Part shown: one piece after another, positions 4,709 through 20,545 of the stretch | How positions within the stretch are numbered: position 1 is the first letter of the stretch | Layout of the letters: each line of letters starts with the position of its first letter | Source of the DNA: an uncultured Gemmatimonadales bacterium | GTDB taxonomy: Bacteria; Gemmatimonadota; Gemmatimonadetes; Gemmatimonadales; GWC2-71-9 | Assembly (NCBI GenBank): GCA_963810185.1 | Contig: CAWEMJ010000007.1 | Coordinates: forward strand, 220,447-284,446 | Direction of reading: 5' to 3' | Length of the DNA stretch: 64,000 nt | Made by a program: the position numbers and the translations under genes | The notes under the pieces: model-generated | What the model saw: only the letters and a program-made list of their open reading frames with translations | Database searches by the model: none | What the model was told of the DNA's origin: nothing

Positions 4709-6451
4709 TCAGTGTCCCATCAGCATGAGATGTTCGACGATCGGACCGAGGGCCAACCCTGGCAGGTGCGCCAGCGCGCCCACCAGCAGCACCGTGCCGA
4801 GCAGCAGGGCGACGAACAGCGGCGTGTGAGTCGGCAAGGTCCCCAGCCCCGGCGGCACCGATTTCTTGCCCGCGAGCGAACCGGCTATGGCCAGCGTCGG
4901 CACGATGATCCAAAACCGGCTGACGAACATCGCGATGCCGAGAGCCAGGTTGAAGAACGGCGTGTTGGCGTTGAGGCCCGCGAAGGCGCTCCCATTGTTG
5001 TTGGAGGCCGAGGTGAGGCCGTACAGGACTTCCGTGAAGCCATGCGCCCCGGGGTTGAAGATCGAGGCGGTGGCGGAAGGGAGCACGACGGCGACGGCGG
5101 TGCCGATCAGGAGCAGGGCGGAGGGGAGCAGGACGATGACCGCGGAGAGGGTCACCTCGCGCGCCTCGATCTTCTTGCCGAGGTACTCCGGCGTGCGCCC
5201 CACCATCAGCCCCGCGATGAACACGGCCAGGATCACGAAGATCAGCATGCCGTAAAGCCCGGAACCCACTCCGCCGAAGACGACTTCGCCCAGCTGCATC
5301 AACCAGAGCGGCCAGAGTCCACCGAGCGGAGTGAAGGAGTCGTGCATCGAGTTGACGGAGCCGTTGGACGCCGCGGTGGTCGCGGTGGCCCACAGGGCGG
5401 AACTCACCGGACCGAAGCGCGCCTCCTTCCCCTCCATGTTGCCGCCGGGCTGGACACCGGACGGAGCCTGGTCCGCGCCCACCGCGGTGAGCACCGGGTT
5501 GCCCGCCTGCTCCGATGACATCGTGGCGACGGTGAGCGCCGCGAAGATGATGGCCATGGCGGCAAAGATGGCCCACCCTTGCCGGTCGTCCTTGACCATC
5601 CGGCCGAAGGTGAAGCAGAGCGCCGCTGGAAGAAGGAGGATGGCCAGCATTTCCAGCAAGTTGCTGAAGGGGGTCGGATTCTCGAGCGGATGTGCCGAGT
5701 TCACGTTGAAGAACCCGCCGCCGTTGGTGCCGAGTTGCTTGATCGCCACCTGGCTGGCGGCGGGCCCGACCGCAATGGCCTGGGTGGTGACGAGAGAGGA
5801 ATCCGCCTGGAACGGCTGGACCAAGGTCACCGCCCGGCTGGCGGCCATGGTCTGGACGACGCCCTGCGAGACCAGCAGCAGCGACAGTACCACCGCGAGC
5901 GGGAGCAGCACGTAGAGCACGCTGCGGGTCACGTCCACCCACGCGTTACCCAGTGTGCTCGCCGTGCGCCGGTGCAGCCCGCGGATGAACGCGGCGAGAA
6001 CGGCCATGCCGACCGCCGCCGAGACGAAATTCTGCACCGTGAGCGCCAGCATCTGCGTCAGGTTGCTCATCGTCGTCTCGCCGCCGTACGCCTGCCAGTT
6101 CGTGTTGGTCACGAAGCTCATGGCGGTGTTGAAGGCGAGCGCGGCGGGGACGCCGGCGAAGCCCGCCGGGTTCCCGGGCAGGACGCCTTGCAACCGCTGA
6201 ATGGCGTAGACCGCCACCAGGCTCACGGCGCTGATGGCCAGGACGGCGAGCGTGTATTCCCGCCAGCCCATTTCCTTCCCCGGGTCGACGCCCAGGAACC
6301 GGTAGAAAAGGCGTTCGACCGGCGCGAGCGCCCGCTGGGCGAGTTTCGCCTCTCCGGTGTAGACCCGCGCCATATAGTGACCCAGGGGCAGCCCGAGTCC
6401 GATCAGCAGCGCCAGATAGCCACCGAGCTGGAGCCACGCGAAGGAGGTCAT
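4709..6451 (-). CDS. kdpA: K+-transporting ATPase subunit A
   Basis: ORF 4709..6526. I place the start at the internal ATG 6451 (MTSFAWLQLGGYLALL...), which has GGAGG 8 nt upstream and overlaps the kdpF stop (ATGA). Polytopic membrane protein with KdpA-like selectivity-filter segments (NTNWQAYGGE, GTNGGGFF, SNNGSAF). Confidence 0.95.
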   Translation of the reverse strand: MTSFAWLQLGGYLALLIGLGLPLGHYMARVYTGEAKLAQRALAPVERLFYRFLGVDPGKEMGWREYTLAVLAISAVSLVAVYAIQRLQGVLPGNPAGFAGVPAALAFNTAMSFVTNTNWQAYGGETTMSNLTQMLALTVQNFVSAAVGMAVLAAFIRGLHRRTASTLGNAWVDVTRSVLYVLLPLAVVLSLLLVSQGVVQTMAASRAVTLVQPFQADSSLVTTQAIAVGPAASQVAIKQLGTNGGGFFNVNSAHPLENPTPFSNLLEMLAILLLPAALCFTFGRMVKDDRQGWAIFAAMAIIFAALTVATMSSEQAGNPVLTAVGADQAPSGVQPGGNMEGKEARFGPVSSALWATATTAASNGSVNSMHDSFTPLGGLWPLWLMQLGEVVFGGVGSGLYGMLIFVILAVFIAGLMVGRTPEYLGKKIEAREVTLSAVIVLLPSALLLIGTAVAVVLPSATASIFNPGAHGFTEVLYGLTSASNNNGSAFAGLNANTPFFNLALGIAMFVSRFWIIVPTLAIAGSLAGKKSVPPGLGTLPTHTPLFVALLLGTVLLVGALAHLPGLALGPIVEHLMLMGH

Positions 6452-6540
6452 TCGAACGCCTCCGGATTCAGCAGCGCCACCAATAGATAGATGAAGAGCC
6501 CGAGCGCAAGCACTCCAGCGATCCAATAGAGAACGGTCAT
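6448..6540 (-). CDS. kdpF: K+-transporting ATPase small subunit F (30 aa)
   Basis: Below the ORF-track size cutoff, so I translated it by hand: MTVLYWIAGVLALGLFIYLLVALLNPEAFE. It is a single TM helix with a KdpF-like ending. A GGAGG lies 8 nt upstream, and its TGA overlaps the kdpA ATG. Confidence 0.7.
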   Translation of the reverse strand: MTVLYWIAGVLALGLFIYLLVALLNPEAFE

Positions 6541-6632
6541 CGGGTGCCTCCGCGCCGTTCGCAGAGGCGCAGGAAGCCCCTGGTCAGGACCAGGAGGAAG
6601 GCGGTGAGCGCGATGATTGCCAGGTCCAGCAT
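6537..6632 (-). CDS. Hypothetical 31-aa single-TM peptide, ATGA-coupled upstream of kdpF
   Basis: Hand translation: MLDLAIIALTAFLLVLTRGFLRLCERRGGTR. Its TGA overlaps the kdpF ATG (cgATGAcc). There is no Shine-Dalgarno, and a perfect 8-bp hairpin sits 8 nt upstream. Speculative. Confidence 0.25.
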   Translation of the reverse strand: MLDLAIIALTAFLLVLTRGFLRLCERRGGTR

Positions 6633-6733
6633 GGATCGAGTCCGTGTGGGAGACACGGACAAGCTACGGCGGGCTGCGTCAGGGAGGGGTAAGGAGAGGT
6701 GAAGCGGGTGTTAGGAAAGCATCAGGATCGCAC

Positions 6734-8368
6734 CTATGGTCGGCGCCGCCATCCCGGCGCCACCGGCGGCGTGGACATCGACGCCCGCCGCAGCAGTTCG
6801 AGATGCGGGGCGAGCACATCAGCCAGCTGCTGCGCCAGCGCAATGTCTGCCCGCGTGAACGCGTCCGCGCCGGCGGCCAGCAACGTGAGGCAGCCGAAGA
6901 TTCGCCCCGCCACGCGGAGCGGCACCACCAGCGCGGCGGTGGGCTGCCCCGAACCCATGTCTGATTCGAGCTGTCGGCGCGCGGAGGCATAGGCATGCGG
7001 CAGTTCCCCGCGCAGCACCCTCCCCAGTTCGGTTCCGGCCACGGACACCAGCGGCAGGTCGGGCAGCGGGCGCGAGTCGCCCGACGCGACGATCACCACC
7101 TCGTCGGCCTCGCCCAGCCGCAGGGCAAACTCGACGCGATCGAACGGCAGGACCGTTGATGCCTCGCGGGCAAAGAGCCGGGTGGCCGCGCCGACATGGG
7201 CCGTGGTCGCCAGCACCTCGGCGATCCGTCCAAGGTGCGCGGGCACGTTGCGGAGCACGCTCAGGTGGGAGCGCATCACCTGCACCTGCCAGGCCAGCAG
7301 GAAGCTGTCCACCCGCACGGCGACGAGCGGTGCCACCTGTCGCAGGAGCTCGAGATCGTCGGGCCGGAAGAACTCGGGGCCATTGCCTCCGAGGAGGAGA
7401 TACCCCGCCACGCGGGTCTGAGAGAGCAGGCGCACGCCCACGACGGAACGCGCCAGCGGCGAGCCCCTGCCCTGCCCCGGCGCATCGGGACACCACGACG
7501 GCGTGCCCTGCTGCGCGTTGGTGTCGCCCACCAGGATATCGTCGGCGTCGCCAAACCTGGCCGCCGGATCGAACTGGCCCTTGGTCACGACAAGCGCCGG
7601 ATCAGACCAGAAGGTGCCGGGTCCGTGGCGGTCGAATCGGTAGTGCTCCTGCGCTGACGCGTCGGGCACGAGGATCTGGATCTGGTCGTGCGGCAGCATA
7701 GGCTGGAGCGCCTGTGACACGAACTCGGAAAATTCCCGCGGAGTGCGCGAGGCCGATTCGGCCAGGCCAAGCTTGGCCAGCAGCTCGTGCAGTTCCACGA
7801 GCTTCCGTCCCGGCTCGGACCGGCGGCGCTCCGGCGGTGGCGGGGAGCCATCCTCGCGCGGCGGCGCCAACGGTTCCCTGCCCTGCCGCGACACGCGCGC
7901 CAGCGTCGGCCCGAGTGAGTCCGCCACGTTGCGGAGCAGCACTGCTTCCGGCAAGCCGTAGCGGGCGGGACGGAGATCGGCGAGCAGGAGGAGCCCCACA
8001 TCCCGGTCGCCGTGGGCCACCGCCATGCAGACCGCCGACGCGTAGCCGGCAGTCCGGATTCGCTGCTCCATGGTGTAGAGCTCGTCCTGGCCCAGATGCG
8101 GGGCGGGAGACGGAACTTCGAGATTGTCCTGCGCCAGCGCGGAGGGGCCCACCAGCACCGCCGGACCCTCTGGTGGATAGACCCAGAGCGCCATCAGGTC
8201 GTGCGGGAGCTCGGGAGCCAGCAAACCGGAAAGCGCCTCGAGCCAGGTCTCAAGGGCGACCGCATCCCACGACCCTCCCTTGAGGCGCAGCAACGGAACC
8301 CTCACATCGAGGGCTTCGATCTCGCCACCTTGGGAGGAGGATCGGAATGAGTCGCGGTGGTCGTTCAT
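6734..8368 (-). CDS. Multi-GAF-domain protein with no recognisable output domain
   Basis: ORF 6734..8434; the likely start is the internal ATG at 8368 (MNDHRDSF...). Repeated GAF-like segments are present (e.g. ...VCMAVAHGDRDVGLLLLADLRPARYG..., ...RVAGYLLLGGNGPEFFRPDDLELLRQVAPLVAV..., ...VPLRVAGRIFGCLTLLAAGADAFTRADIALAQQLADVLAPHLE). Confidence 0.75.
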   Translation of the reverse strand: MNDHRDSFRSSSQGGEIEALDVRVPLLRLKGGSWDAVALETWLEALSGLLAPELPHDLMALWVYPPEGPAVLVGPSALAQDNLEVPSPAPHLGQDELYTMEQRIRTAGYASAVCMAVAHGDRDVGLLLLADLRPARYGLPEAVLLRNVADSLGPTLARVSRQGREPLAPPREDGSPPPPERRRSEPGRKLVELHELLAKLGLAESASRTPREFSEFVSQALQPMLPHDQIQILVPDASAQEHYRFDRHGPGTFWSDPALVVTKGQFDPAARFGDADDILVGDTNAQQGTPSWCPDAPGQGRGSPLARSVVGVRLLSQTRVAGYLLLGGNGPEFFRPDDLELLRQVAPLVAVRVDSFLLAWQVQVMRSHLSVLRNVPAHLGRIAEVLATTAHVGAATRLFAREASTVLPFDRVEFALRLGEADEVVIVASGDSRPLPDLPLVSVAGTELGRVLRGELPHAYASARRQLESDMGSGQPTAALVVPLRVAGRIFGCLTLLAAGADAFTRADIALAQQLADVLAPHLELLRRASMSTPPVAPGWRRRP

Positions 8369-8537
8369 GGTGCGGCATAGTGCACTTTGCATGCCTCGGC
8401 TTGCAGTCACACAACGTAATGATATACAAAACAATGGGTTACGCCAGCTTTTGTTATCTCAATCGCGGTGCGATCTTTACCGCCTCATCTTGCAAATGCC
8501 TGCTGGACAAGAACTTCAGCCCGGATACAGATGGCTG

Positions 8538-8566
8538 TTGACATACCCCCCACCCCTATATATCTT
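8538..8566 (+). promoter_or_regulatory. Candidate cop promoter with embedded C-tract operator (ATA-C6-A-C4-TAT)
   Basis: TTGACA at 8538-8543. Possible -10 elements are TATATA/TATATC/TATCTT at 8557-8566 (17 nt spacing to TATCTT). The spacer is a C6-A-C4 tract flanked by ATA...TAT. It lies 116 nt upstream of copZ in an AT-rich intergenic island, and csoR is in the same operon. Confidence 0.4.
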
Positions 8567-8651
8567 GGATCGCCTTTTCGCCGCTGCGGCCCGCAGTCAG
8601 TCGCCCTCGCTCTCTCTGGGCAAATGATTCTGGAAGGGCCACAGACATAGT

Positions 8652-8669
8652 TAGTAGTACTCACTACTA
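8652..8669 (+). promoter_or_regulatory. Perfect 7-bp inverted repeat TAGTAGT-ACTC-ACTACTA immediately upstream of copZ
   Basis: Read directly: 8652-8658 TAGTAGT, 8659-8662 ACTC, 8663-8669 ACTACTA. It ends 12 nt before the copZ ATG at 8682. Confidence 0.35.
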
Positions 8670-8681
8670 TGTATTGGAATC

Positions 8682-8900
8682 ATGGAAAATCTCACCCTCC
8701 ACATCGAAGGCATGTCCTGCGGGCACTGCCTCAACGCCGTCAACAAGGCGCTTGCCGCCCTCGACGGCGTGAAGATCGATTCGGTCAAGATCGGGCGGGC
8801 GGAAGTGCGGTTCGATGCCGCCAAGACCGATCCCGTCCGGATTGCCGCCGCCATTTCCGAAGAGGGCTACCGCGCCACTCCGGCCCCCGGCCCCGCCTGA
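8682..8900 (+). CDS. copZ: Copper chaperone CopZ (HMA domain)
   Basis: 72 aa. [24 protein letters not shown]... carries the GMxCxxC heavy-metal-associated motif. It lies directly upstream of copA. Confidence 0.9.
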
Positions 8901-8913
8901 GCTGGTCGTAACG

Positions 8914-11238
8914 ATGCCGGCCACCACCGAACGCGCCACCATTCCCGTCACGGGAATGACCTGTGCCGCCTGCAGCGCCCGCATTCAGCGCACGCTCGAG
9001 CGCACCCCCGGGGTGGCCTCCGCCAACGTGAACCTGATGACCAACTCCGCCACCGTGGAGTGGAATCCGGCGCTGTCCACCATCGACGCCCTCGTCACGA
9101 CCATTCGAGACACCGGTTACGGCGCGGAACTGCCCCGCCCCGAGGCCAACCCCGGCGACGAAGAGACCGCCGATGAGCGGCGTCTTGCCGCCGAACAGGC
9201 CACGCTCCGCCGGAAGGTGACGGTCAGCCTGGTGGCCGCCGCCGTCGCCATGGTCATCGGCATTCCGCTGGGTGAAGCCGCGGCCGCCGAGGGCGCGGCT
9301 GATCCGCTGATGCACCTGATGATGCCGCTGGGCGACGCCCTCCGCGCGGTATCGCCAGGCCTCTTCTCCGTGACGGCCGGCACCTGGCGCTGGACGCTCC
9401 TCGTCCTGACGCTGCCCATCGTGTTCTGGGCCGGCCGCCATTTCTACGTGCGCGCCTGGGCCGCCGCGCGGCACGGCGGCGCCGACATGAACACCCTCGT
9501 CTCCGTCGGCACCGGCGCCGCCTTCCTGTTCAGTCTGGCCATGACGGTGGGCGCGCCGTACTTCCTGGCCCGCGGCGTCGAGCCGCACGTGTACTACGAA
9601 GCCGTCATCTGGATCATCGCGCTCATCCTCCTCGGCAATTACCTCGAGTCTCGCGCCAAGGGCCGCACCTCGGCGGCCATCCGCAAGCTGGTGGCCCTCC
9701 GTCCGGACACCGCACACGTGATGCGGGGCGGGGAAGTGGTCGACGTTCCGCTCGACCAGGTCCGCACCGGCGACCTGCTCCTCGTCCGCCCCGGCGAGAC
9801 GATCCCCGTGGACGGTGTCGTCGTGGAAGGCACCACCTTCGTGGACGAGGCGATGCTGACCGGTGAGCCGACTCCGGTGGCCAAGCAATCCGGAAGTACC
9901 GTCGTGGGCGCCACGCTCAACCGTGCCGGCGCCATCCGGTTCCGCGCCACGCGGGTAGGCGGCGACACCGTGCTCGCGCAGATCATCCGCATGGTGCGCG
10001 AGGCCCAGGGGGCCAAGGCACCGATCCAACAGCTCTCCGACCGCATCGCCGCCGTCTTCGTGCCGGTGGTCATCCTCATCGCCCTCGGCACCTTCGCCGC
10101 CTGGTATTTCGTGGGGCCGGAGCCGCGTGTGGTCCGCGCACTCGCCGCCGCCGTCACGGTGCTGATCATCGCCTGCCCATGCGCCATGGGGCTCGCGGTG
10201 CCCACAGCGGTCATGGTGGCGACGGGGCGCGGCGCGGAGCGGGGAGTGCTGTTCAAGGGCGGCCATATTCTCCAGCGCACCGCCGAGCTCCAGGTCATCG
10301 TGCTCGACAAGACCGGCACCATCACCGCGGGCAGCCCGGCGGTCACCGATGTCTGGGCGCTCGGGGCAGGGAACGACTCCGCCATGCTGGCGGCCGCCGC
10401 CGCGCTCGAGAAGATGAGCGAGCATCCCCTTGGCGAGGCCATTGTGGCGGCGGCACGCGCGCGCGGCTTGGCCATCCCGACGGTCACGGAGTTCCAGGTG
10501 ACGCCGGGGAAGGGTGCGGTCGGCGTCGTGGAGGGCCAGGGCGTGCTGGTGGGCAACCGCGCGATGCTCGCCGACTGGGGTGTCGACCCGGCGCCGCTCG
10601 CCGCCGAGGCGGACCAGCTCGCCGCCAGCGGCGCCACTCCCGTGCTCGTGGCCATCGGCGGCGAGGCCGCGGGGATCATCGCGGTGGCCGACCCGATCAA
10701 GCCGACCAGCGCTGCCGCCGTGGCCGCGCTCCGCGCGCTCGGACTCGAGGTCGTGATGCTCACTGGCGACGTCCGCGGCACGGCGGAGAGCGTCGCGCGT
10801 CAGATCGGGATCGAGCGGGTCGTGTCCGAGGTACTGCCGGAACACAAGCGCGATGAAATCCAGCGGCTGCAGGGGGAGGGGAAAGTCGTGGGGATGGTGG
10901 GCGACGGACTCAACGACGCCCCGGCGCTCGCCCAGGCCGACGTCGGCATCGCCATTGGCACCGGCACCGACGTGGCGGTCGAGGCGGGCGACGTCACCCT
11001 CATGCGCGGCGACCTGGCCGGCGTGCCCGAGGCGGTGCGACTCGCCCGGCGCACCCTGCGCGTCATCAAGCAGAACCTCTTCTGGGCCTTCGCCTACAAC
11101 GTGGTGGGCATTCCGGTGGCGGCCGGGGCGCTCTATCCGATGTTCGGACTCCTCCTCACCCCGACCATGGCGGCCGCGGCCATGGCGGTGAGCAGTGTGT
11201 CCGTGGTCTCCAACAGCCTCCGCCTCCGGAGGGCCTGA
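8914..11238 (+). CDS. copA: Cu(I)-translocating P1B-type ATPase
   Basis: ORF 8815..11238. I place the start at ATG 8914 ([24 protein letters not shown]), just after the copZ stop. It has one HMA domain, the CPC transmembrane motif ([13 protein letters not shown]), DKTGTIT and [16 protein letters not shown]. Confidence 0.95.
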
Positions 11239-11609
11239 TGCGCGCGTCCACGCCCGACCACGACCTCCCAGCCGACGAATCCCACGCGCCGTGTGCCTGC
11301 GCCCGCCCCGGTGACGGCACCCACGCGGTGGCGGTGGACCCCGCGCTCAAGGAAGCGGCCTTGAATCGGCTCAAACGGATCGAGGGGCAGGTGCGGGGCC
11401 TGCAGCGGATGCTGGAGGACGAACGTTACTGCGCGGATGTTCTGACGCAGATCTCGTCGGTCCACGAGGCGCTCCGCGGGGTCGCCCGGATTCTGTTCCG
11501 GAACCACCTGGAGCACTGCGCCGCCACCGCCATTCGCTCGGGCAGCGAGGAGCAGACCGGCGCCATGTATGATGAGTTGGTGGAGTTGTTGTACCGGAGT
11601 GCGAGATAG
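11238..11609 (+). CDS. csoR: CsoR/RcnR-family metal-sensing transcriptional repressor
   Basis: 123 aa. LNRLKRIEGQVRGLQRMLEDERYCADVLTQISSVHEALRGVARILFRNHLEHC is the DUF156/CsoR core with Cys-His-Cys ligand positions. Its ATG overlaps the copA TGA (TGATG). Confidence 0.85.
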   Translation: MRASTPDHDLPADESHAPCACARPGDGTHAVAVDPALKEAALNRLKRIEGQVRGLQRMLEDERYCADVLTQISSVHEALRGVARILFRNHLEHCAATAIRSGSEEQTGAMYDELVELLYRSAR

Positions 11610-11628
11610 GCAGGGCAGGGGGACAGAC

Positions 11629-11659
11629 GGGCCGCGGGGCAGTTACTGCCCCGCGGCCC
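11629..11659. terminator. Bidirectional hairpin between convergent csoR and the MFS gene
   Basis: Perfect 15-bp palindrome GGGCCGCGGGGCAGT-T-ACTGCCCCGCGGCCC (11629-11659). It overlaps the last codons of the MFS gene. There is no clear U-run. Confidence 0.5.
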
Positions 11660-13217
11660 CGCGGCCCAGCGGCCCCGCCACGACCACGGGATGTGTCGCC
11701 GTCGTCCGCGCGATGACAAACTCCATGTCCCGAAGCACCGTGCCCACGCCAAGCAGGAGCACCATGCCGCCGGCAATGATGGCCGCCGGCAGGATGAACA
11801 TGGCCCGGTCGATGCCGAAGCGGTCGGAGAGGAAGCCGACCAGTGGGAGTGCGATCGCGTCGCCCGCAACGTGGATGAAGAGCAGGTAGGCGCCCACCAC
11901 GGTGGCGCCGATCCGGGCCGGCGCCACGTCGAAGACCGCCGCGATGACGGGGCCATTGTAGAGCGTGAGGAAGAAGAACGCCACCGCGAACACCGGCACG
12001 AACAGGCGTAGGTCCCGCACTGACAAGAGCCAGATGGCCAACGGCCCCCCGACGAACAGCCCCAGCGACGACACCAGCATCCGGCCCCGCCCGGTGTACT
12101 TCCCAAGCCAGTCGGCGATGAACCCACCGGCAAGGGTGCCCGCGGTGCCCGCCAGCAGTCCCCACTGACCGAGCAAGAGCGTCCCCTGCGCCACACTGAG
12201 TCCCAGCGCACGCGACATGAAGGTCGGCGCCCACCCCACCAGGCCGTTCATGCCGAACGAGACCAGCGCGCCACCCACAAACAGGTACTTCAGCGTCGGC
12301 GTGCGGAAGACGGTGTCCACTGCAATCTTCATCTCGCCGAGCGCGTCGTTCATGCTCTCAGCCGGCAGGAAATCGAAAATCATGTCCTTCCGGCGATTGG
12401 CCCGGACCACCAGGACCAGATTGCCGGCGAGCCCGAGCCCGATGCCGGTGGCCAGCGCGGCCATGTCGAGGCTCGAGGTAGCGCCGTAGCGGCTGTCGAG
12501 GATCCACGCCGCGATGGCGCCGAACGCCGATCCGAGGAGGAACGGCCACGCCACCTTGAACGCACCGGTGGCGCCCAACTCGAGCTGCCGCCAGTACTGC
12601 CGTACGGTGAACACCGGGGGTGGCCGGTTCGGATCGGTCAGCCGCGCCACGAGCGCCGCCAGGAGAAATCCCGGCACGGCCACGGCCATCATGGCAATGC
12701 GCCAGCCGTAGAACTGCTCCAGCTGTCCGGCGATGGCGATGCCGACGACCCCACCGATCGGGATACCGGCCGAGAAGACCCCCATGGCCACGGCCCGCCG
12801 GCGACCCGGGAAGTAGTCCGCCACGAGCGAGGCGGCGGCGGCGGTGAACGCCGCCGCGCCGACGCCAACCGCGGCCCGCGCCAGGAACATCCCCCAGAAG
12901 CCGCGCGAAAGGCCCGCAAGAAAGGCGAATGCGCTCCAGACCACGACACCCGCGGCGGCCACCGCGCGCCGGGAACGCAGGTCGCTCAGGACGCCGAAGG
13001 GAAAGACCGCCACCGAAAACAAGAGCACGAAGGCGGAGGCGATCCACCCGATATGAGTATCAGTGAGGTGAAGATCGAGCTCGATCGGGGGGACGAGGGC
13101 GAATATGACGTTGCGGTTGACGTAGCTCAGCAGGTTGAGGAGTGCCAGCAGCGCGAGCGCGTACCAGCCGTACGCGCGCGTCGGTCCTGGTGCAGTCGGG
13201 GGACTGCTAGTGGCCAC
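11643..13217 (-). CDS. MFS transporter (spinster-like)
   Basis: 524 aa with about 12 predicted TM helices. MFS signature region ...[44 protein letters not shown]...LSDLRSRR. Last gene of a five-gene overlapping operon. Confidence 0.85.
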
Positions 13218-14352
13218 CCCGATCTCCCTTGGCGTCGTCGGCCCGCTGGTTTCGGAAGGACAGGGCGGCGCGGTACTCCGTCACCAGGCGCTCCATCATC
13301 GCGTCGCGCCGGTCGTAGAGCCGCTTGACCGGCCGCGGTGCCACCCGCTGCAGTGCGTAGGCGGTTAACAGCGGCAGGGTGATCGTGTTGTCGGCGTAGC
13401 AGACCACCGTGCCCGGGAGCTGATCGGGGTCGATCTTGCCCCAGCTGACCGCCTCGTTGGGCGTCGCGCCCGAGAGGCCGCCCACATCGGGGCGGGCGTC
13501 GGTCATCTGCAGGAAGTAGTCGTGCCCGCGTTCATCGATGCCGAGCACCTCCTGGATTTGCGGCTCGGTCTGGAGCATGAAGTTCTTGGGGCTCCCGCCG
13601 CCCGCGATGAGCACCCCGCTCTTTCCGCCGGTACGCTTGGCCTCGAGCACGATGGCCGCCGTCTCGTTCACGTCGGCGCTCACGTCGAAGCGGAGCAGGC
13701 TCCCCGCCAGCGCCTGTTCGGCCACGTTCATCCCGATCGAACTGTCGCCGGGGGAGCTGGTGTAGATCGGCACGGCAAGTTCGTGCGCCGTGGAAAGCAC
13801 CGAGCGCTTCGAGAGCCCGAGCGCCGCCTCCCGCTCCCGGAGGTAGCCGCCCAGCAGGTAGTGGTACTCCGCGGAGCTCATGGCGCGCTGGAACTCCGGC
13901 CGTGCCGACACCTCCCGCACAAAGGCGTCGGTCGACAGAAGCACATTGTAATCGAAGAAGATGTCGTAGATGCGTACCACGCCCTTGTCGCGGAGCTCGA
14001 CGTCGTCGGCGTCGTGGCGGCCGCGGTGAAGCGCGAGGCCGAGCGCAAAGTGCGCGTCGTGGTACAGGTTGGCGCCGGTCGAGATGATCCAGTCCACGAA
14101 TCCCGCCTCCATCAGCGGGATGAGGCAGCTCATGCCGATGCCGGCCGGCGTCATGGCGCCGGTCAGGCTCATCCCCACGGTCGTATCGGGCAACAGCATC
14201 CGGGTGGTGAAGAGCTGGCAGGCCTCGCGGAGCCGTCCGGCGTTGTAGGCCAGAAAGGCGTTGTCCACCAGGTCGGCCACCTGCTCCGCGCCGGTGATGG
14301 CCTTGGGGTCGATCCGCTGGCCACGGAGGTAGGGGCCCGAGGGACGTGTCAT
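13207..14352 (-). CDS. Deoxyhypusine synthase-like / homospermidine synthase-like protein
   Basis: ORF 13207..14409. The preferred start is ATG 14352 (MTRPSGPY...), with GGAG 9 nt upstream and no overlap with LOG. DHS-family segments are present: [39 protein letters not shown]...IYDIFFDY...[14 protein letters not shown]. Confidence 0.85.
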
Positions 14353-14377
14353 GCCGTACTCCGGTCTGGACGGGTGG

Positions 14378-15121
14378 TCAGGTCCGCTTGGCGCGGGCGT
14401 CGAGGACAATCCGGACCGCTTCTTCCGGGTCGTCCGTCACGTGGAACAGCGTCAGGTCGGCTGCGTCGATGTTCCCCGCGCCCGCCACCGTGCGCGAGAG
14501 CCACTCCACCATCCCGTCCCAGTACGCCCGGCCGAAGAGGATGACGGGAAAGGACTTCACCTTGCCGGTCTGGATCAGGGTGAGCGCCTCGAAGAGCTCG
14601 TCCATGGTACCAAAGCCGCCGGGAAAGACGATGAAGGCGGTGGCATACTTGACGAACATCGTCTTGCGGACAAAGAAGAACTTGAAGAGCAGGTTCTTGG
14701 TGAGATACGGATTGTTCCCTTGCTCGAAGGGCAGCTCGATGTTGCACCCGACGGACTCCCCTCCCGCCTCCTTGGCGCCGCGGTTGCCTGCCTCCATGAT
14801 CCCGGGGCCGCCGCCGGTAATGACCGGGATGCCGTGATCCGCAAGGAGGCGCCCCACCGCCACCGCTTCGCGATAGTAGCGGTCGTCGCCCTTGGTCCGG
14901 GCCGACCCGAAGATGGACACGCCGTCCTTGATCGGCGCGAGGTTGTCGAATCCCCAGACGAACTCCCCCATGATCCGCAGCACGCGCCACGAATCGCTGA
15001 TCTTGAGGGCGTCAGCCCGCTGCCGCTCCGCGTCGGTGGCAAACCGGTCGAAGAGCAGTTCGTCTTCGGTCAGGCTGCGGTCGATGGGGCGCCTGGGCGG
15101 AATCGGGACGTCAGCGGCCAT
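14378..15121 (-). CDS. LOG-family (TIGR00730-type) Rossmann-fold nucleotide N-glycosidase
   Basis: 247 aa. VSIFGSART...[18 protein letters not shown]...[10 protein letters not shown]...[22 protein letters not shown] are the PGGxGTxxE and GGGxGxM LOG motifs. Confidence 0.9.
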
Positions 15122-16268
15122 GGGTCAGGCACTCCAGCAGGGCCCGGTGGTCATCGGGCACGTTATAGAAGAAGGGTGACACACGCACGTGACCCGGGCG
15201 GGCGTCGACAATGAACCCCGCCTCGGCCAGCCGGCGCACGTCCGCCGCCGGGTCGGGGGATGGGAGCATGACGATGGCGCTGCGGTCGTCCGCATGCGCT
15301 GCCACTCGCGGGACGAATCCGTGCGCCAGGGCGGCGGCGATCAGGTCTTCCGTCAGTGCGGCCGTGGCGGCACGAATGGCGGGCACGCCGATTTCCTCGA
15401 TCACGTCGAGACCACCGAGCTGGGCGTATACCGGCATCAGTGGCGGAGTGCCGGCCTCGAGCCGGCGAGCATCATCGTGCAGCTCCAGCGCGCGCGGATC
15501 GAACCGGAACTGTTCCCGGTGGGCAAACCATCCAGTCACCGTGGGGGACAGGGTCGGTGTCACATCGGGCCGTGCGTACAGGAACGCCACGCCGGTCCCG
15601 CCGAGGAGCCACTTGAGGCCGCCGCCCAAATAGAAGTCGACGCCCAGCGCCTGCACGTCCACGGGAAGTTGCCCGGCGGCCTGGTAGCCGTCCACCAGGC
15701 AGAGCGCACCGGCGCGGTGCGCAATGGCCGAGAGTGCCGCCGCGTCCTGGATGGCTCCGCTGGTGAAGAACACGTGGCTGGTGGCCACCAGCGCCGTGCG
15801 ATCATTCACCGCACGTTCGAACATCTCCAGCGGCACGGTGATCCCGTCCGGGCTTTCCAGTACCACGACCTCGACGCCGTCCCGCTGTTTGGCCATCCAT
15901 TGGTAACCGATGGTGGGAAAATCGAGGCTGGTCACCACCACCCTCGGCCGCGCGCGGTAATCGAGGGTCGACGCCACCACCCCGAGCGCGCTCGACACGT
16001 TGGGATGGAGCGCGACCGACCCGGCGGGTGCATGGATCAGCCTTCCATACCTGGTGCGCAACTCATCCAGCGCCGCCCACCAGGTTTCGTACCAGGCCGA
16101 GGCCCCGCGGGTGTCCCAGAGATCGAGATACTCGTTGACTCGTGCCCGCGAACGGCGAGAGAGTGCGCCCAGCGAACAGCTGTTCAGGTAAATGCAGCGC
16201 TCGAAGATCGGGAATTCGGCCCGGGAGCGCGCGGCGATGGACTCGGGCATGTCGCTACTGATTCCCAA
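15111..16268 (-). CDS. Class-V aminotransferase-fold PLP-dependent enzyme
   Basis: 385 aa. IYLNSCSLGALS...SHVFFTSGAIQD...VDGYQAAGQLPVDVQALGVDFYLGGGLKWLLGG, a kynureninase/cysteine-desulfurase-like fold with the putative PLP lysine in GGLKW. Confidence 0.85.
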   Translation of the reverse strand: MGISSDMPESIAARSRAEFPIFERCIYLNSCSLGALSRRSRARVNEYLDLWDTRGASAWYETWWAALDELRTRYGRLIHAPAGSVALHPNVSSALGVVASTLDYRARPRVVVTSLDFPTIGYQWMAKQRDGVEVVVLESPDGITVPLEMFERAVNDRTALVATSHVFFTSGAIQDAAALSAIAHRAGALCLVDGYQAAGQLPVDVQALGVDFYLGGGLKWLLGGTGVAFLYARPDVTPTLSPTVTGWFAHREQFRFDPRALELHDDARRLEAGTPPLMPVYAQLGGLDVIEEIGVPAIRAATAALTEDLIAAALAHGFVPRVAAHADDRSAIVMLPSPDPAADVRRLAEAGFIVDARPGHVRVSPFFYNVPDDHRALLECLTHGR

Positions 16269-17328
16269 AGGTCCAGCTCAGCCCGGAATTAATGCCATAG
16301 TCGTTGCCCGACGTCCCTGCGGGGGGCTGGGTGTCCCAGTTGCCGTAGAACGAGAGGTTCCAGTTGATGGTGCCGAAGAGCTTCAGAAAGTAGGACGCGT
16401 TGGTATTGAAGAAGAAGCGGCCTGGCTCGGTGAGGGAGGGGATCGCGTCGACGGTCAGGCTCAACGTGGTCCGTTTGAATTTCACGTAGTTGAGCTTGCC
16501 GAGCAGCATGATACCGACTAGTTCCTGCGATGTGGCCGTGGTCACGGAGGATTCGTAGTTGGTCGTCTGATAGACCAGCCCCCCGACGACGCTCACCCGC
16601 ACGTTGCTCGTCTTCTTCAGATACCGGCCGATACCCGCGCCCAGGTTGGCCTGGAGGCTGATCTGCTGCTCGGCGCTCTGGAGGCCGCTCCCGAAGCCGG
16701 TGTAATACCAGTTGTTCCAGCGCATGAGGTGAGCCCCGACGAGACTGAGGTTGTTCCGTGTCGATGCCGTGGCGCCGGTGCTGTTGGAAAAATTGGAGTT
16801 GAAGGTGAGGGCAGCACTCCACCGGGGGCGCGGGTAGTTGACGTTGGACGCGATGTTGTAGGTGGTGGTGTTGTTGCCCTTTGCAAAGCTGATGCCCGAC
16901 GTCAGGTTGCCGTTCAGGCGGCCGAAGAATGTCGTGGACGTCCGGCTCAGCCCGGCGATGCGTGACTTGTCGAATGTCAGCTGCGGGCCATCCGGCTGCG
17001 CGATCTCGACCAGGACCGAGTCGCTCCCCTCCACCGGATGCACCGAGATGTGTCCCGTGTAGACCGAGCCGTCGTCGAGCTCCACCAGAAAGAGCTGCGG
17101 GCTTTCGATGCTCGCAATGCGCGACCAGTTCACGGTAATGGTCCCGTCCACGTAGTCGAGCGACACGTAGACAGCCCCCGCGTCCATGGTCTTGATCTCG
17201 CAGGTCATCCGGTCGCCGTTCTTCATGAAAATCATGTCCGTCTTCGGCCCGAGGGCCATCGGCGGATTGAAGAGGAGGGCGGCGCCCAGCAGGGCGGTTC
17301 CGAAGAGCATGCAATCTCCCGATACCAA
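16255..17328 (-). CDS. DUF481-like outer-membrane beta-barrel protein
   Basis: 357 aa with a signal peptide, an N-terminal soluble module (IFMKNGDRMTCEIKTMDAG...) and a C-terminal barrel ending ...GINSGLSWTFGNQ. First gene of the operon. Its G+C is noticeably lower than that of its neighbours. Confidence 0.7.
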   Translation of the reverse strand: MVSGDCMLFGTALLGAALLFNPPMALGPKTDMIFMKNGDRMTCEIKTMDAGAVYVSLDYVDGTITVNWSRIASIESPQLFLVELDDGSVYTGHISVHPVEGSDSVLVEIAQPDGPQLTFDKSRIAGLSRTSTTFFGRLNGNLTSGISFAKGNNTTTYNIASNVNYPRPRWSAALTFNSNFSNSTGATASTRNNLSLVGAHLMRWNNWYYTGFGSGLQSAEQQISLQANLGAGIGRYLKKTSNVRVSVVGGLVYQTTNYESSVTTATSQELVGIMLLGKLNYVKFKRTTLSLTVDAIPSLTEPGRFFFNTNASYFLKLFGTINWNLSFYGNWDTQPPAGTSGNDYGINSGLSWTFGNQ

Positions 17329-17384
17329 TTGCGCGAGGCGGACTGCCCCGGCGCTTCACGCAGGAAGAATACTACCACACCTGC

Positions 17385-17732
17385 ATGCGCAGTCCCCAGT
17401 CCTCGGTCCTCATATATATTCCCCTGATGCCCCCCACGTCCGACCACCTCGAACATCCCGGCGCCGCGCGCTACCGCGGCTCGTGGGGCGGCCTTCTGTT
17501 GGGCGCCGCGCTTCGCGCCGCCGTCAACCCGCGGCTCGCCTGGGACCTGCTTCGGGCGGGCTGGGCCTTTCGCCGGCGGCGCTGGTGGGCCGACCCACCC
17601 TTCCTCCCAGTGCCCGACCGTACCTACCTCCGCTGGCGGATGTACACCGCCTATGGCGCCGAGGACGCCGTACCCCCGCTTGAGGACATGCTTCGGTTTG
17701 TCCGCTGGCGTCGGGAAACCATGGGTCTCTGA
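17385..17732 (+). CDS. Hypothetical Trp/Arg-rich protein upstream of queG
   Basis: 115-aa ORF; an alternative start is ATG 17427 (MPPTSDHLE...). Third-position G+C is high, consistent with coding. I recognised no family. Confidence 0.4.
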   Translation: MRSPQSSVLIYIPLMPPTSDHLEHPGAARYRGSWGGLLLGAALRAAVNPRLAWDLLRAGWAFRRRRWWADPPFLPVPDRTYLRWRMYTAYGAEDAVPPLEDMLRFVRWRRETMGL

Positions 17733-17748
17733 GCACCACCCGCCGCTC

Positions 17749-18708
17749 GTGACCCTGACCGCCCCTGAGGTGAAGGCCCGTGCCGCCGAGCTCGGCTTCG
17801 TCGCCTGCGGCATCACCGACCTGGGTCCCTCGATTCGCGCCGCAGCCCTCACGCGTTGGCTCGACAAGGGCTACGGCGGGAACATGCGCTACATCAATCG
17901 ACAGGCGAAGAAACGGAAAGACCTGAGGCTGATCGACCCGGTAGCACTCCGCGCCATTGTTATTCTTGATAACTACTACTATCAGGAATCAATCCAGCCG
18001 CGAACCGAACCCAAGGTGGCAATGTATAGTCGTAGTATTGACTACCATCTGGTTACGCTCAATAGAATCAATCAATTAGCTACATGGCTCACCGACCACG
18101 GCGCCCGGACGGCACGGACATACGTAGACACTGGCCCCGTCCCGGAGCGGGAGCTCGCCGAACGCGCCGGACTCGGCTGGATCGGCAAGAACACCATGCT
18201 CCTCCGCCCCGGGCTCGGCTCCTGGTTCGTCATCGGGAGCATCTTCACCGACCTGCCGCTCGACATCGACCCTCCCTTCGAGACCGATCACTGCGGCAGT
18301 TGCACCAAGTGCCTTGATGCCTGCCCGACCGATGCCTTCGTCGAGCCCTACGTCCTGGACGCGACCAAGTGCATCTCCTACCTCACAATCGAGTATAAGA
18401 ACGAGATCCCCGCCGAATTGGCCGGCCAGTTAGGCGGCTGGGCGTTTGGTTGCGATGTGTGCAATGACGTCTGTCCCTGGAATCTGCGTTTTGCGACGGA
18501 ATCGACCGTTCCCGAGTTCCGTCCCAGGGGTGATTTGCGAGGAGCTGGCGAGGACTTCTTCGATCGAATGACCGAGGAGGAGTTCCAGTCGAAGTTTGGC
18601 GACACGCCCTTGGCCCGGCCCGGCCTCGAGCGGATGAGGCGTAACTGGCGAAACGCGTGGGCCAGCCTGCAGGAGGCTCAGCGCCGCGCGGCTGCCGAGC
18701 GCCAGTAG
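17749..18708 (+). CDS. queG: Epoxyqueuosine reductase
   Basis: ORF 17653..18708. The probable start is the in-frame GTG at 17749 (VTLTAPEVKARAAELGF...), just after the upstream stop. Two ferredoxin-type clusters (CGSCTKCLDACPTDAF, GCDVCNDVCPWN), CISYLTIE, and a typical QueG length. Confidence 0.85.
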   Translation: MTLTAPEVKARAAELGFVACGITDLGPSIRAAALTRWLDKGYGGNMRYINRQAKKRKDLRLIDPVALRAIVILDNYYYQESIQPRTEPKVAMYSRSIDYHLVTLNRINQLATWLTDHGARTARTYVDTGPVPERELAERAGLGWIGKNTMLLRPGLGSWFVIGSIFTDLPLDIDPPFETDHCGSCTKCLDACPTDAFVEPYVLDATKCISYLTIEYKNEIPAELAGQLGGWAFGCDVCNDVCPWNLRFATESTVPEFRPRGDLRGAGEDFFDRMTEEEFQSKFGDTPLARPGLERMRRNWRNAWASLQEAQRRAAAERQ

Positions 18709-20075
18709 GCAAAGACCGGTACGCCAAGCGCGAGCAGACCCACCCCGCGCACTGCATTGCCCGGGTTAGATAGGACGGACCCCACCACCACGTAGCCTGC
18801 CGCAGCCACGAAGACCCAAAGCGCGAGCGGATATCCCGGCACCCGAAACGGTATGCCTGCCATGCCGTCGCGCCGGCGGAACACAAGCAGCGTGGCCGCC
18901 GTGAGTCCGAAGAAGATCCAGTCGGCAAAGACCACATAGTCGAGCAGGGCGCCGTACTGCCCCGAGTACACCAGCGCCGCCGACCACACCCCGAGAAACA
19001 CGATGGCCGGCACCGGCGTCCGGAACCGCGGATGCAGCCGGGCGAACCCCTCGAAAAAGAGCCCGTCGGCGGCCATCGCCTGGAAGACCCGCGGTGTCAC
19101 CAGGATCACCAAATTGAGGAAACCGAAGGTCGAACAGGCGATGCCCGCCGTAATGATCACACGTCCCGCGGAGCCGAGAAGAACTTCCATCGTGTCGGCG
19201 GCGGGAGCGGTGCTCGCGGCGAGCCCGTCCACTCCCAGCGCACCGAGGTACGCCACGTTGGCCAGGACGTACACCAGCACCACCGCCATCACGCCCAGCA
19301 CCAGCGCCCGCGGCAGGTTCTTTTCCGGCTCGACCAGTTCCTCCGCAATGAAATTGGTCTGTTGCCACCCGCCGTACGCGAAAAGCACCGGCACCAGCGC
19401 CGCGGCCACCGCGCCGACCATCGCCCCCATGCCCTGCGGCACGGCAAGCGCGGCGCAGCTCACGCACGGCGGGGCGGGGTGGCCCAATGCGCGAAGGCCT
19501 GCCCCGACCACCATAGCGATGGCGGCGAGCTTCAGGACGGTGAAGACGTTCTGCGTGACAGCACCGAAGGTGACGCCGAGGCAGTTGATCAGTGTCAGCA
19601 GCAGGATGGCCGCCACCGCCACCGGCCGGACCAGTGCCGGTGAAAAGCCCACCAGTGCGGCGGAATAATTGGAAAAGGTGACCGCCACCGCGGCGATGGC
19701 ACCGGGGGCCATGATGAGGAGCAGCGCCCAGGCATAGAGAAAAGCGGGCAGAGGGCCGAAGGCCTCGCGCAGGTAGGCGTAGCCGCCTCCCACCTTGGGG
19801 CGGCGCTGTCCCAGTTCGCCGTAGATGAACGCCCCGATGAGCGCCACCACGCCGCCGCCGATCCAGACACCAAGGGTCGCGGCGGGAGTGCCCACCCGCT
19901 GCGCCACGATGGACGGATTGAGGAAGATGCCAGACCCGATGATTCCGCCGATGACGGACATGGTGCCGGAAAAGAGGCCCAGGCGACGCGCATAAGTGAC
20001 GGCCACAGCGACTCCGGAAGAGGGACGGCGAATGTACGGCGGGGTGGGGGTGGGCGCCAGCGGTCCGGCAACCAT
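18678..20075 (-). CDS. APC-family amino-acid permease
   Basis: ORF 18678..20228; the likely start is ATG 20075 (MVAGPLAP...). MSVIGGIIGSGIFLNPS...YGELGQRRPKVGGGYAYLREAFG; 12-TM APC signature. Confidence 0.85.
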   Translation of the reverse strand: MVAGPLAPTPTPPYIRRPSSGVAVAVTYARRLGLFSGTMSVIGGIIGSGIFLNPSIVAQRVGTPAATLGVWIGGGVVALIGAFIYGELGQRRPKVGGGYAYLREAFGPLPAFLYAWALLLIMAPGAIAAVAVTFSNYSAALVGFSPALVRPVAVAAILLLTLINCLGVTFGAVTQNVFTVLKLAAIAMVVGAGLRALGHPAPPCVSCAALAVPQGMGAMVGAVAAALVPVLFAYGGWQQTNFIAEELVEPEKNLPRALVLGVMAVVLVYVLANVAYLGALGVDGLAASTAPAADTMEVLLGSAGRVIITAGIACSTFGFLNLVILVTPRVFQAMAADGLFFEGFARLHPRFRTPVPAIVFLGVWSAALVYSGQYGALLDYVVFADWIFFGLTAATLLVFRRRDGMAGIPFRVPGYPLALWVFVAAAGYVVVGSVLSNPGNAVRGVGLLALGVPVFAYWRSAAARR

Positions 20076-20152
20076 GAAGGCTGGGGGTTGGGTAAATTGA
20101 GCGGTGTCTGGCGGGCTCCGCCGCCGCCGCGTCCCCTGTCGACTGGAATCGT

Positions 20153-20545
20153 ATGGCACCGCGAGCCAAGAAGTCACCGAAGACCACCGCCCAGGCGACA
20201 GCGGAGGGCGAGGCTGTCGGGCCCGCACTGCGCTTCCATCAATCGGCGGAGTCGCGCGCCAGGATGCTGGCCGTGCTCACCGCGCTCGAGGAAGCCGACG
20301 ACCCGGAAGACCACCGCGATGCGCTCGCCGACCTGGTCGCCGAACTCACCGAAAGCGGCATGGATTATTACTACATGCGGGCGCTCAAGCTCGCCAAGAC
20401 CGGCTACGTCGCCCAGCAGTCGGCACGGATGGGCATTTCAGGCGCCGTGACGATGATCAGTTCGGTCAGTCGACGCTTTATCGTGCGCATGGACAAGGCC
20501 CAGCTGCTGACGGTGGCCGCCCACATTCGCAGCCTCGCGGACTAG
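20153..20545 (+). CDS. Hypothetical protein
   Basis: 130-aa ORF with coding-like composition and high third-position G+C. No family recognised. Confidence 0.55.
   Translation: MAPRAKKSPKTTAQATAEGEAVGPALRFHQSAESRARMLAVLTALEEADDPEDHRDALADLVAELTESGMDYYYMRALKLAKTGYVAQQSARMGISGAVTMISSVSRRFIVRMDKAQLLTVAAHIRSLAD

Follow-up and report, generated by a model that had tools for sequence, protein, structure and literature searches.

The window analyzed here, a 64,000-nucleotide stretch from a soil Gemmatimonadales bacterium with a GC content of about 67%, carries a run of five ORFs on the minus strand at positions 11643-17328 (Table 1). Read 5′ to 3′ on that strand, the genes encode a DUF481 outer-membrane protein, a PLP enzyme, a LOG protein, the deoxyhypusine synthase (DHS)-like protein SpeY, and an MFS transporter. 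All five ORFs were recovered where an earlier sequence-only reading had placed them. Their GC content at the third codon position is 0.81-0.91, which is typical of real genes, and Pfam and NCBIfam matches bore out the domain families that had been proposed.

Organization of the operon

Table 1. Features of the speY locus (window coordinates).
Feature	Position	Strand	Evidence and remarks
DUF481 outer-membrane β-barrel protein, first operon gene	16255..17310	-	PF04338 65 bits, 1.3e-17, residues 145-353
Class-V-fold PLP enzyme, kynureninase-like, accessory	15111..16250 (alternative TTG start 16268)	-	PF00266 (Aminotran_5) 124 bits, 9e-36
LOG, type-II (hexameric-type), putative nucleoside 5′-monophosphate phosphoribohydrolase	14378..15121	-	PF03641 121 bits; TIGR00730 153 bits (cutoff 96.35)
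speY, DHS-like, core gene	13207..14352	-	PF01916 (DS) 226 bits; NF001980 554.2 bits (cutoff 450; model positions 1-348 of 350)
MFS transporter, Spinster-like N-terminal half, accessory last gene	11643..13217	-	PF07690 (MFS_1) 148 bits, 5.8e-43
Divergent intergenic region, 116 nt	17311..17426	.	contains AATATATAT tract; read from sequence

The genes are tightly packed, with junctions of −11, +25, −11, and +4 (or −14) nt. The PLP stop and the LOG ATG overlap by 11 nt (15111-15121), the LOG stop is separated by a 25-nt gap from the speY ATG at 14352, which has GGAG 8 nt to its 5′ side, and the speY stop and the GTG start of the MFS gene, the latter preceded by GGGAG, share 11 nt (13207-13217). 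The DUF481 stop lies 4 nt before the PLP ATG at 16250; with TTG at 16268 as the start the two genes overlap by 14 nt. The start of the DUF481 gene is most likely ATG 17310, preceded by GGGAG at 6 nt, and not TTG 17328, to which the longest ORF reaches. For speY the start is 14352 and not 14409, and public data contain a 100% identical protein of 381 aa. The overlapping or near-abutting arrangement of five minus-strand genes described earlier was thus confirmed from the ORFs and from the junctions read in the sequence.

No sigma-70-like promoters were found within the operon, and terminator-like hairpins occur in it at chance level (5 found, 3.2 ± 1.8 expected), which makes it plausible that the five genes form a single transcription unit. 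Rfam gave no matches. On one side the unit meets convergent csoR/copA genes (plus strand, end at 11609), and on the other a small ORF and queG run divergently from about 17427, also on the plus strand; the homologue of the small ORF occupies 17523-17729 of that strand. The promoters of the operon and, in the other direction, of the small ORF and queG presumably lie in the divergent intergenic region. A consensus sigma-70 match was not found in it.

Properties of the encoded proteins

The DHS-like protein is assigned to the SpeY family by its match to NF001980; no archaeal or eukaryotic DHS model reaches its own cutoff with it. Its NEAVSWGK segment aligns with DEAVSWGK of human DHS, and the catalytic Lys (K329 in human DHS, K299 in CdmS) and the Glu six residues upstream (E323 and E293, respectively) are kept. 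This EAVSWGK-type Lys/Glu motif is present in 79 of 80 related loci. At the positions of human Asp243, Asp316, and His288 the protein has Met (in PGDSSIGM), Leu (in GGLSGA), and Phe. CdmS likewise has hydrophobic residues, Phe204 and Leu286, where eukaryotic DHS has the spermidine-binding D243 and D316 (PMC10981699). Archaeal DHS also carries Leu at the Asp316 position, and the residue test separates SpeY from eukaryotic DHS only. The sequence-only reading had regarded the function of bacterial DHS-like proteins as only partly understood, but the family was characterized in 2024-2026: SpeY converts two agmatines to bis(guanidino)homospermidine (G44G), from which homospermidine is formed by a separate ureohydrolase or iminohydrolase (PMC10981699; PMC13625781). 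All members tested, from diverse phyla, make G44G (PMC13625781), itself a distinct guanidino-polyamine (PMC10981699). Judging from family membership and the residues given above, the protein studied here presumably performs the same agmatine to G44G chemistry. Its gene is orthologous to those in the SpeY/CdmS clusters of Anabaena, Thermus thermophilus (TTHA1570), Winogradskyella, Caldilinea, and Rhizorhabdus (PMC13625781, PMC10981699).

By its sequence, the LOG protein is a canonical type-II LOG, with TIGR00730 and the hexameric LOG of Seo and Kim (2017) defining the reference class. It is about 55-60% identical to characterized type-II LOGs and shows full-length similarity (E 1e-64 to 1e-75) to 5ZI9 (6.8e-75), Corynebacterium glutamicum Cg1261 (5WQ3, 5e-69), and T. 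thermophilus Tt1465 (1WEK, 3e-64). The alignments to 5ZI9 and 5WQ3 begin at residues 16-34, and the N-terminal extension is present in the sequence. The protein shares with type-II LOGs the PGGxGTxxE motif, the catalytic residues Arg and Glu, and the adenine-binding Phe and Asp; FFVRK and the second motif segment align with Arg155, Asp177, and Glu178 of Cg1261. Every type-II LOG catalytic motif is kept, as it is in 57 of 58 speY-linked LOGs. The type-II LOGs that have been assayed act on AMP as phosphoribohydrolases and do not decarboxylate lysine (PMC5379747), which together with the class identity and motifs agrees with the earlier remark that the protein is not a lysine decarboxylase. What sets the Gemmatimonadota LOG apart from other LOGs is its phylum-wide translational coupling to a polyamine synthase; a literature report of any LOG in such a context was not found.

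The PLP enzyme aligns over its full length with the nearest solved structure, Pseudomonas fluorescens kynureninase (1QZ9, 4e-32). In this alignment the PLP lysine, within GGLKWLLGG, is matched; it is kept in 21 of 21 orthologues, and the pyridine-binding Asp is also kept; fold and both residues are common to kynureninase and SufS/CsdA. Unlike these enzymes, the protein falls far below the family cutoffs. Assignment as a kynureninase was rejected on a TIGR01814 score of 82.1 bits (cutoff 246.4) and assignment as a SufS/CsdA cysteine desulfurase on a TIGR01979 score of 95.9 bits (cutoff 475.1), with other desulfurase models far below their cutoffs as well. The enzyme belongs to an uncharacterized subfamily that, among the loci examined, occurs only beside LOG-speY in Gemmatimonadales.

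The transporter is clearly an MFS_1 protein, and the six helices of its N-terminal half resemble Spinster-type proteins most. The nearest solved structures are the Hyphomonas Spns homologue HnSpns (6E8J, 3.9e-21) and human SPNS2, to which only residues 14-193 align (E about 1e-20 to 1e-21), the rest of the protein being unaligned. Known Spns substrates are lipids. Orthologues of the transporter diverge fast (41-58% identity). The DUF481 protein matches the full Pfam model of the DUF481/Escherichia coli YdiY barrels and also carries a signal-like segment at the N terminus and one more domain, of about 120 aa; to our knowledge the family has no known function.

Gene neighborhood in Gemmatimonadota and beyond

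Synteny was surveyed in 59 Gemmatimonadota species representatives (GTDB), with the loci assessable for each gene as denominators. Of 56 loci, 54 have LOG as the gene immediately upstream of speY, and two lack it there. The two genes are spaced by −35 to +100 nt in 52 of 58 pairs, with a 4-nt start/stop overlap in 17 species; one locus has a 1.8-kb insertion between the genes. The PLP gene immediately precedes LOG in 21 of 49 species and is absent from the 28 others that keep LOG-speY. The MFS gene immediately follows speY in 25 of 56 species and in none of the 54 metagenomic loci from outside that clade. Every combination of presence and absence of these two genes occurs, which reflects independent loss, and LOG-speY alone is the commonest form. 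The four-gene form PLP-LOG-speY-MFS occurs with overlapping junctions in 14 species (SpeY identity 73-90%), and one subclade carries a longer version of the operon, with added genes for an ATP-grasp ligase and a Peptidase_Mx metallopeptidase. A DUF481 homologue was present at none of the 59 loci and among relatives only at the metagenomic locus L006; this relative and L004 each miss a different gene of the five. DUF481 is a lineage-specific and probably recent addition to the operon.

The sequence-only reading had held that its five-gene pathway would be refuted if the genes were not syntenic in related genomes; as a set they are not, and the refutation largely applies. The units that survive the comparison are the LOG-speY pair across Gemmatimonadota and the four-gene form. 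Outside the phylum, LOG-speY adjacency was seen in 1 of 17 genomes, which is probably mis-binned, and in 0 of 61 metagenomic loci. The surroundings of the pair have turned over: upstream neighbors include PLP, DUF481, phosphodiesterase, and NDH-2 genes, and downstream ones MFS, csoR, greA-like, and other genes. In 30 of 34 loci queG lies within 8 kb upstream, and csoR/copA share the same block in 11. Because queG is also conserved nearby, much of the LOG-speY synteny is inherited.

No arginine decarboxylase (ADC) or agmatinase/iminohydrolase-type gene was found in the operon or, in the 59 related species, up to 8-10 kb away. A tblastn search with E. coli SpeA and SpeB gave no match in 87 loci, the Gemmatimonadota flanks among them; it covered SpeA- and SpeB-type genes in flanks. 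For pyruvoyl-, SpeD-, and AAT-fold ADCs and AguA the coverage was by Pfam scans or reading by eye of 14 of the 20 commonest neighbor gene clusters, among which no such enzyme was identified. The only hit in the window, and its only arginase-fold gene, lies at 27207-28121, about 10 kb from the operon, and encodes a true arginase (TIGR01229, 306 bits). Since genes for the ADC and for a ureohydrolase or iminohydrolase acting on G44G are missing from the operon and from related loci, the pathway is not self-contained, contrary to what had been proposed.

This arrangement differs from published speY clusters, in which speY occurs with an ADC and speB/DUH, or with aguA/DIH and aguB, and never with LOG (PMC13625781, PMC10981699, PMC10407285). 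At the Gemmatimonadota loci a type-II LOG is the conserved neighbor, and the optional PLP, MFS, and DUF481 genes are in no published speY cluster. A dedicated hydrolase is expected to travel with speY (PMC13625781); none was seen at these loci, a point that counts against the reading favored below. No paper combining LOG with DHS came up in a full-text literature search, in keeping with the earlier statement that no pathway with this gene set has been described.

Function and origin of the gene set

The locus is probably a speY-centered operon with variable accessory genes and not a fixed five-gene pathway. Agmatine would be supplied by an arginine decarboxylase encoded elsewhere. The NAD-dependent SpeY would oxidize one agmatine, keep the resulting 4-guanidinobutyl group bound to its catalytic lysine through an imine, transfer it to a second agmatine, and reduce the adduct to N1,N9-bis(guanidino)homospermidine (G44G). 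Trimming of G44G to homospermidine would fall to a ureohydrolase or iminohydrolase whose gene lies elsewhere. LOG is predicted to cleave nucleoside 5′-monophosphates to base and ribose-5-phosphate; it appears translationally coupled to speY throughout Gemmatimonadota, and the two most likely represent co-expressed housekeeping functions instead of a shared reaction sequence. The PLP enzyme and the Spinster-like MFS transporter would be order-level accessories, gained and lost independently, of which the transporter most plausibly carries a polyamine or its precursor over the inner membrane. DUF481 would have joined the operon recently and in this lineage only.

The sequence-only reading had seen a self-contained pathway in which the PLP enzyme, LOG, and SpeY make or modify a polyamine-like compound that the MFS and DUF481 proteins export over both membranes. 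That reading stands as to the genes, the families they belong to, and how they are packed; it does not stand as to the fixed pathway. Overlapping junctions, conservation of the four-gene form, and the status of G44G as a polyamine in its own right are consistent with it, and the ATP-grasp and Peptidase_Mx extension suggests polyamine tailoring. However, the DUF481 gene is missing from all species representatives, PLP and MFS come and go separately around the more common bare pair, and all four partners are missing beside closely related SpeY genes outside the phylum. Neither the ADC nor the G44G hydrolase was found at the locus, and the intact nucleotide-binding and catalytic residues of LOG make a new amine-directed activity unlikely. 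We consider such a pathway improbable. The persistent four-gene form and its extension could still belong to an extended pathway for a modified polyamine. A functional coupling in which LOG, the kynureninase-like enzyme, or both produce, trim, or tailor a guanidino-polyamine derived from SpeY and the MFS transporter moves the product, with both LOG-speY and the four-gene or extended forms being functional, is likewise improbable.

At the other extreme, LOG-speY may be a frozen accident of ancestral gene order, of no consequence for selection or function, in an operon pieced together from unrelated genes. The conservation of queG, which has no polyamine link, and of csoR/copA in the same block points in this direction, as do the loci with a missing or displaced LOG and the lack of adjacency in other lineages with SpeY proteins 50-73% identical. 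Yet the pair has stayed tightly overlapped while its immediate neighbors changed repeatedly on both sides, which argues for selection on LOG-speY and hints at a functional link. A purely historical explanation is in our view an unlikely though appreciable alternative. The gene directly upstream of published speY genes is usually a recruited ADC (PMC13625781, PMC10407285), with precedents derived from ODC and SpeD in other phyla, and in Sphingomonas a type III PLP enzyme occupies this position. The PLP enzyme or LOG could by analogy be a neofunctionalized arginine decarboxylase that supplies agmatine, and the failure to find a SpeA-type ADC in any Gemmatimonadota flank would fit, within a search that covered SpeA- and SpeB-type genes in flanks. 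We nevertheless hold this to be very improbable. We know of no α-decarboxylase in PF00266, and the PLP gene is absent from more than half of the species with LOG-speY. LOG has neither PLP nor a pyruvoyl cofactor, its nucleotide motifs are intact, and its assayed type-II relatives lack decarboxylase activity (PMC5379747).

Gemmatimonadota are an abundant soil phylum, and the physiological role of bacterial type-II LOGs is still unclear. The SpeY-dependent route to homospermidine has been elucidated only lately; on the current view it spreads as a module that combines speY with a dedicated G44G hydrolase. The new point is the phylum-wide LOG-speY coupling: Gemmatimonadota break the module pattern, with speY unlinked from ADC and hydrolase and tied to a type-II LOG. 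If the coupling is nothing but inherited gene order, the locus would hold an ordinary polyamine gene with variable neighbors, and would warn against inferring a pathway from one tidy operon. Should tailoring of the SpeY product prove true, it would reveal a polyamine branch that replaces the ADC-SpeY-DUH module and a bacterial LOG role unrelated to cytokinins. A functional coupling of the pair would in any case provide a testable handle on the role of bacterial LOGs and on polyamine synthesis in this phylum.

Gene organization of the speY operon

An ORF listing of window positions 9000-20500 recovered the five minus-strand genes delimited by the sequence-only reading, and its five domain calls were confirmed by Pfam and NCBIfam searches. 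Third-position GC of the five ORFs was 0.81-0.91, in a window of about 67% GC, and we therefore consider them real genes. Direct reading of the junctions showed a 4-nt gap between the DUF481 and PLP enzyme genes, or a 14-nt overlap with a TTG start, and 11-nt overlaps at PLP/LOG and at speY/MFS, the latter with GGGAG upstream. The LOG and speY genes are separated by 25 nt containing GGAG. The DUF481 start is most likely the ATG at 17310, preceded by GGGAG, and the speY start is fixed at 14352 by a public 381-aa protein that is 100% identical. Near-identical public proteins carry source names that assign the organism to Gemmatimonadales. A promoter scan gave no sigma-70-like promoters within the operon, terminator-like hairpins were at chance level, and no Rfam family matched anywhere in the window.

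Features of the window discussed in the text
Feature	Position	Strand	Family match
kdpA	4709-6526		
GAF-domain protein	6734-8434		
copA	8815-11238		
csoR	11238-11609		
MFS_1 transporter	13217-11643	−	PF07690
DS-domain protein (speY)	14352-13207	−	PF01916
LOG	15121-14378	−	TIGR00730, 153 bits (cutoff 96)
Class-V PLP enzyme	16250/16268-15111	−	PF00266
DUF481 barrel	17310/17328-16255	−	PF04338
Small conserved ORF	17427-17732	+	no Pfam match
APC-family amino-acid permease	18678-20228	−	
GMC oxidoreductase	25451-27127		
Arginase	28121-27207	−	TIGR01229, 306 bits (cutoff 228)

The operon is bounded downstream by the convergent csoR/copA pair, whose synteny with speY extends to 11 related species and which belongs to a stretch of metal and ion homeostasis genes (4709-11609). 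Upstream, a 116-nt divergent region is followed by the small conserved ORF (ca. 86-101 aa) and queG. Homologues of this ORF occur in the related loci L011-L017, L022, L054 and L066; in relatives it is the first gene of a unit with NDH-2 and queG, of which the NDH-2 gene is missing from the window. The APC-family permease gene is convergent with queG and also adjoins queG in L006, a metagenomic locus. Some members of this family carry arginine/agmatine or polyamines.

Family assignment of the encoded proteins

The DHS-like protein scored 554 bits against the NF001980 equivalog model ('homospermidine biosynthesis protein', cutoff 450) and fell under the cutoff of all NCBIfam models for true DHS. 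By these scores it is a member of the SpeY family. [quoted passage not shown] As the core enzyme and pathway are already known, the earlier view of bacterial DHS-like proteins as only partly understood is outdated. Alignment to human DHS showed that the catalytic lysine and glutamate are kept in the window protein (EAVSWGK), with Asp243, Asp316 and His288 replaced by Met, Leu and Phe; the first two replacements parallel Phe204 and Leu286 of CdmS. The SpeY motifs are kept in 79-80 of 80 loci. Formation of G44G from agmatine by the window SpeY is predicted at the family level, with these residues in support.

LOG-DS fusions were sought among long SpeY homologues and none was found, only inteins and probable read-through DS-MFS fragments. 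Inteins interrupt homologues P0122 (645 aa, 68% identical to the window protein) and P0137 (725 aa, 48%) past residue ca. 295-310, close to the GGLSGA...SWGK active-site region; both carry a splicing domain and P0137 additionally an HNH endonuclease. The public fragments P0126 and P0207, 86-87% identical to the window, consist of a C-terminal SpeY part joined to an N-terminal MFS part. Rather than true fusions they are probably artefacts, caused by read-through or a frameshift at the 11-nt overlap of speY and MFS.

The LOG protein matched 5zi9 (E 7e-75), Cg1261 (5wq3, 5e-69) and Tt1465 (1wek, 3e-64). It is a type-II LOG that has the N-terminal extension, a 12-residue motif and both catalytic residues, Arg and Glu. 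The catalytic motifs are kept in 57 of 58 speY-linked copies. Upstream of LOG and divergent from it, on the opposite strand, Gemmatimonadaceae have a gene for a type I phosphodiesterase/nucleotide pyrophosphatase (PF01663; loci L044, L046, L049, L050, L053, L057, L060, L066, L067, L071, L072, L074 and L081), a further nucleotide-cleaving enzyme beside LOG.

Among solved structures, the PLP enzyme comes closest to P. fluorescens kynureninase, with a full-length match at 4e-32 in which the PLP lysine is aligned. Since it scores far under the kynureninase and SufS cutoffs, it represents an uncharacterised class-V subfamily; the PLP lysine is kept in all 21 linked enzymes. The N-terminal half of the MFS protein is most similar to Spinster-type transporters. 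In one Gemmatimonadales subclade (L029, 10601-12630; L031, L033, L036, L038, L039, L043) the operon continues past MFS in the same orientation with, in this order, mutually overlapping genes for a D-Ala-D-Ala-ligase-like ATP-grasp protein and a multi-zinc-ribbon Peptidase_Mx protein, both absent from the window. This extension could represent polyamine-tailoring chemistry.

Conservation of the LOG-speY pair

Scanning a single genome for each species yielded 80 loci with SpeY 66-90% identical, including 59 Gemmatimonadota species. The locus search used a 7-sequence SpeY alignment, a 17-sequence alignment (A1) being too diverse; a profile search of 5.8 billion proteins with A1 returned only already known close Gemmatimonadales proteins. 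All synteny counts were made by tblastn with the proteins of the window because gene calling based on third-position GC took opposite-strand ORFs at several loci.

LOG lies immediately upstream of speY on the same strand in 54 of 56 assessable Gemmatimonadota species. The PLP enzyme gene immediately precedes LOG in 21/49, MFS immediately follows speY in 25/56, and DUF481 was found nowhere in the speY locus (0/59). The complete PLP-LOG-speY-MFS set occurs in 14 species, and every other combination of presence and absence was also seen. Two metagenomic relatives differ from the window: L004 (SpeY 89% identical) has PLP-LOG-speY-MFS without DUF481, and in L006 (92%) the order is DUF481-LOG-speY-MFS, the PLP gene being absent. 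The LOG-speY gap is −35 to +100 nt in 52 of 58 pairs, with a 4-nt overlap in 17. Insertions of 1.8 kb (L021, 5919-7767) and 0.5 kb (L082, 7475-7986) separate the two genes, and L025 and L028 have no LOG upstream of speY. An apparent 170-370-nt spacer in Gemmatimonadaceae raised the possibility of a leader or riboswitch, which was rejected: the spacer vanished once LOG was followed as far as its stop codon and speY was taken from its in-frame start, the SpeY proteins concerned having an N-terminal extension.

In lineages other than Gemmatimonadota (Eisenbacteria, Acidobacteriota, Cytophagia and others; SpeY 67-73% identical) LOG was adjacent in 1 of 17 genomes, and this sole contig, with Gemmatimonadaceae gene order, is probably mis-binned. 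Locus L067 (DAISJF010000194.1, labelled Rhodanobacteraceae; SpeY 70% identical) has the Gemmatimonadaceae-type phosphodiesterase, LOG, speY order and looks like a mis-binned Gemmatimonadota contig. In a further sample of 80 metagenomic outgroup loci (SpeY 50-73% identical) LOG was upstream of speY in 0/61 and MFS downstream in 0/54; a few had SpeB- or SpeA-like neighbours. Plasmid-borne speY/DHS genes are distant (at most 32% identity) and lie beside rocD or an ODC-like PLP enzyme gene; a plasmid search found none beside LOG.

Interpretation of the locus

In tblastn, no Gemmatimonadota flank gave a match to E. coli SpeA or SpeB. The sole match in the window, ca. 10 kb from the operon, was rejected as an agmatinase because it is a bona fide arginase. 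The arginase ORF lacks a stop at the expected C-terminus and continues for ca. 250 codons to 26454, crossing the start of the adjoining GMC oxidoreductase gene; loss of the stop codon or an indel in the assembly could account for this. On polyamine profiles of Gemmatimonadetes, the literature search gave only a citation of Hosoya et al. 2006.

The reading that we favor, and hold to be reasonably probable, is that SpeY would convert agmatine to G44G by a DHS-type NAD and lysine-imine mechanism, with unlinked enzymes providing agmatine and completing homospermidine. LOG, translated together with SpeY, would be a canonical phosphoribohydrolase of nucleotides, and we can name no chemistry that connects its reaction with that of SpeY. 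The PLP enzyme and MFS protein would be dispensable accessories, the latter plausibly transporting the polyamine or a precursor of it, and DUF481 a recent gain in the window lineage.

That the gene order is frozen synteny, wholly without meaning, is rather unlikely. In 30 of 34 Gemmatimonadota loci, queG is found no more than 8 kb upstream. The whole block is thus inherited, and adjacency alone is weak evidence for shared function. However, immediate neighbours on both flanks were repeatedly replaced while the LOG-speY overlap was retained, which argues against pure inertia. The integrated synthesis-and-export pathway of the sequence-only reading seems improbable: SpeY requires agmatine and homospermidine formation a G44G hydrolase, and since no SpeA or SpeB homologue was found in the flanks the operon is not self-contained. 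Participation of LOG, the PLP enzyme or both in the metabolism of SpeY-derived polyamines is similarly doubtful. An arginine decarboxylase hidden in the PLP enzyme or LOG would supply the missing agmatine step, and we give this very little credence. For LOG, a decarboxylase role was rejected because of the intact nucleotide-binding motifs and of published assays in which Cg1261 and Tt1465 were active as AMP phosphoribohydrolases and had no lysine decarboxylase activity (PMC5379747).

Published speY clusters hold genes for arginine decarboxylase, speB/DUH or aguA/aguB. No paper that combines LOG and DHS came up in a full-text search, in agreement with the earlier view that the gene set is undescribed. 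The phylum-wide coupling of LOG and speY in Gemmatimonadota, of uncertain meaning, appears to be new.
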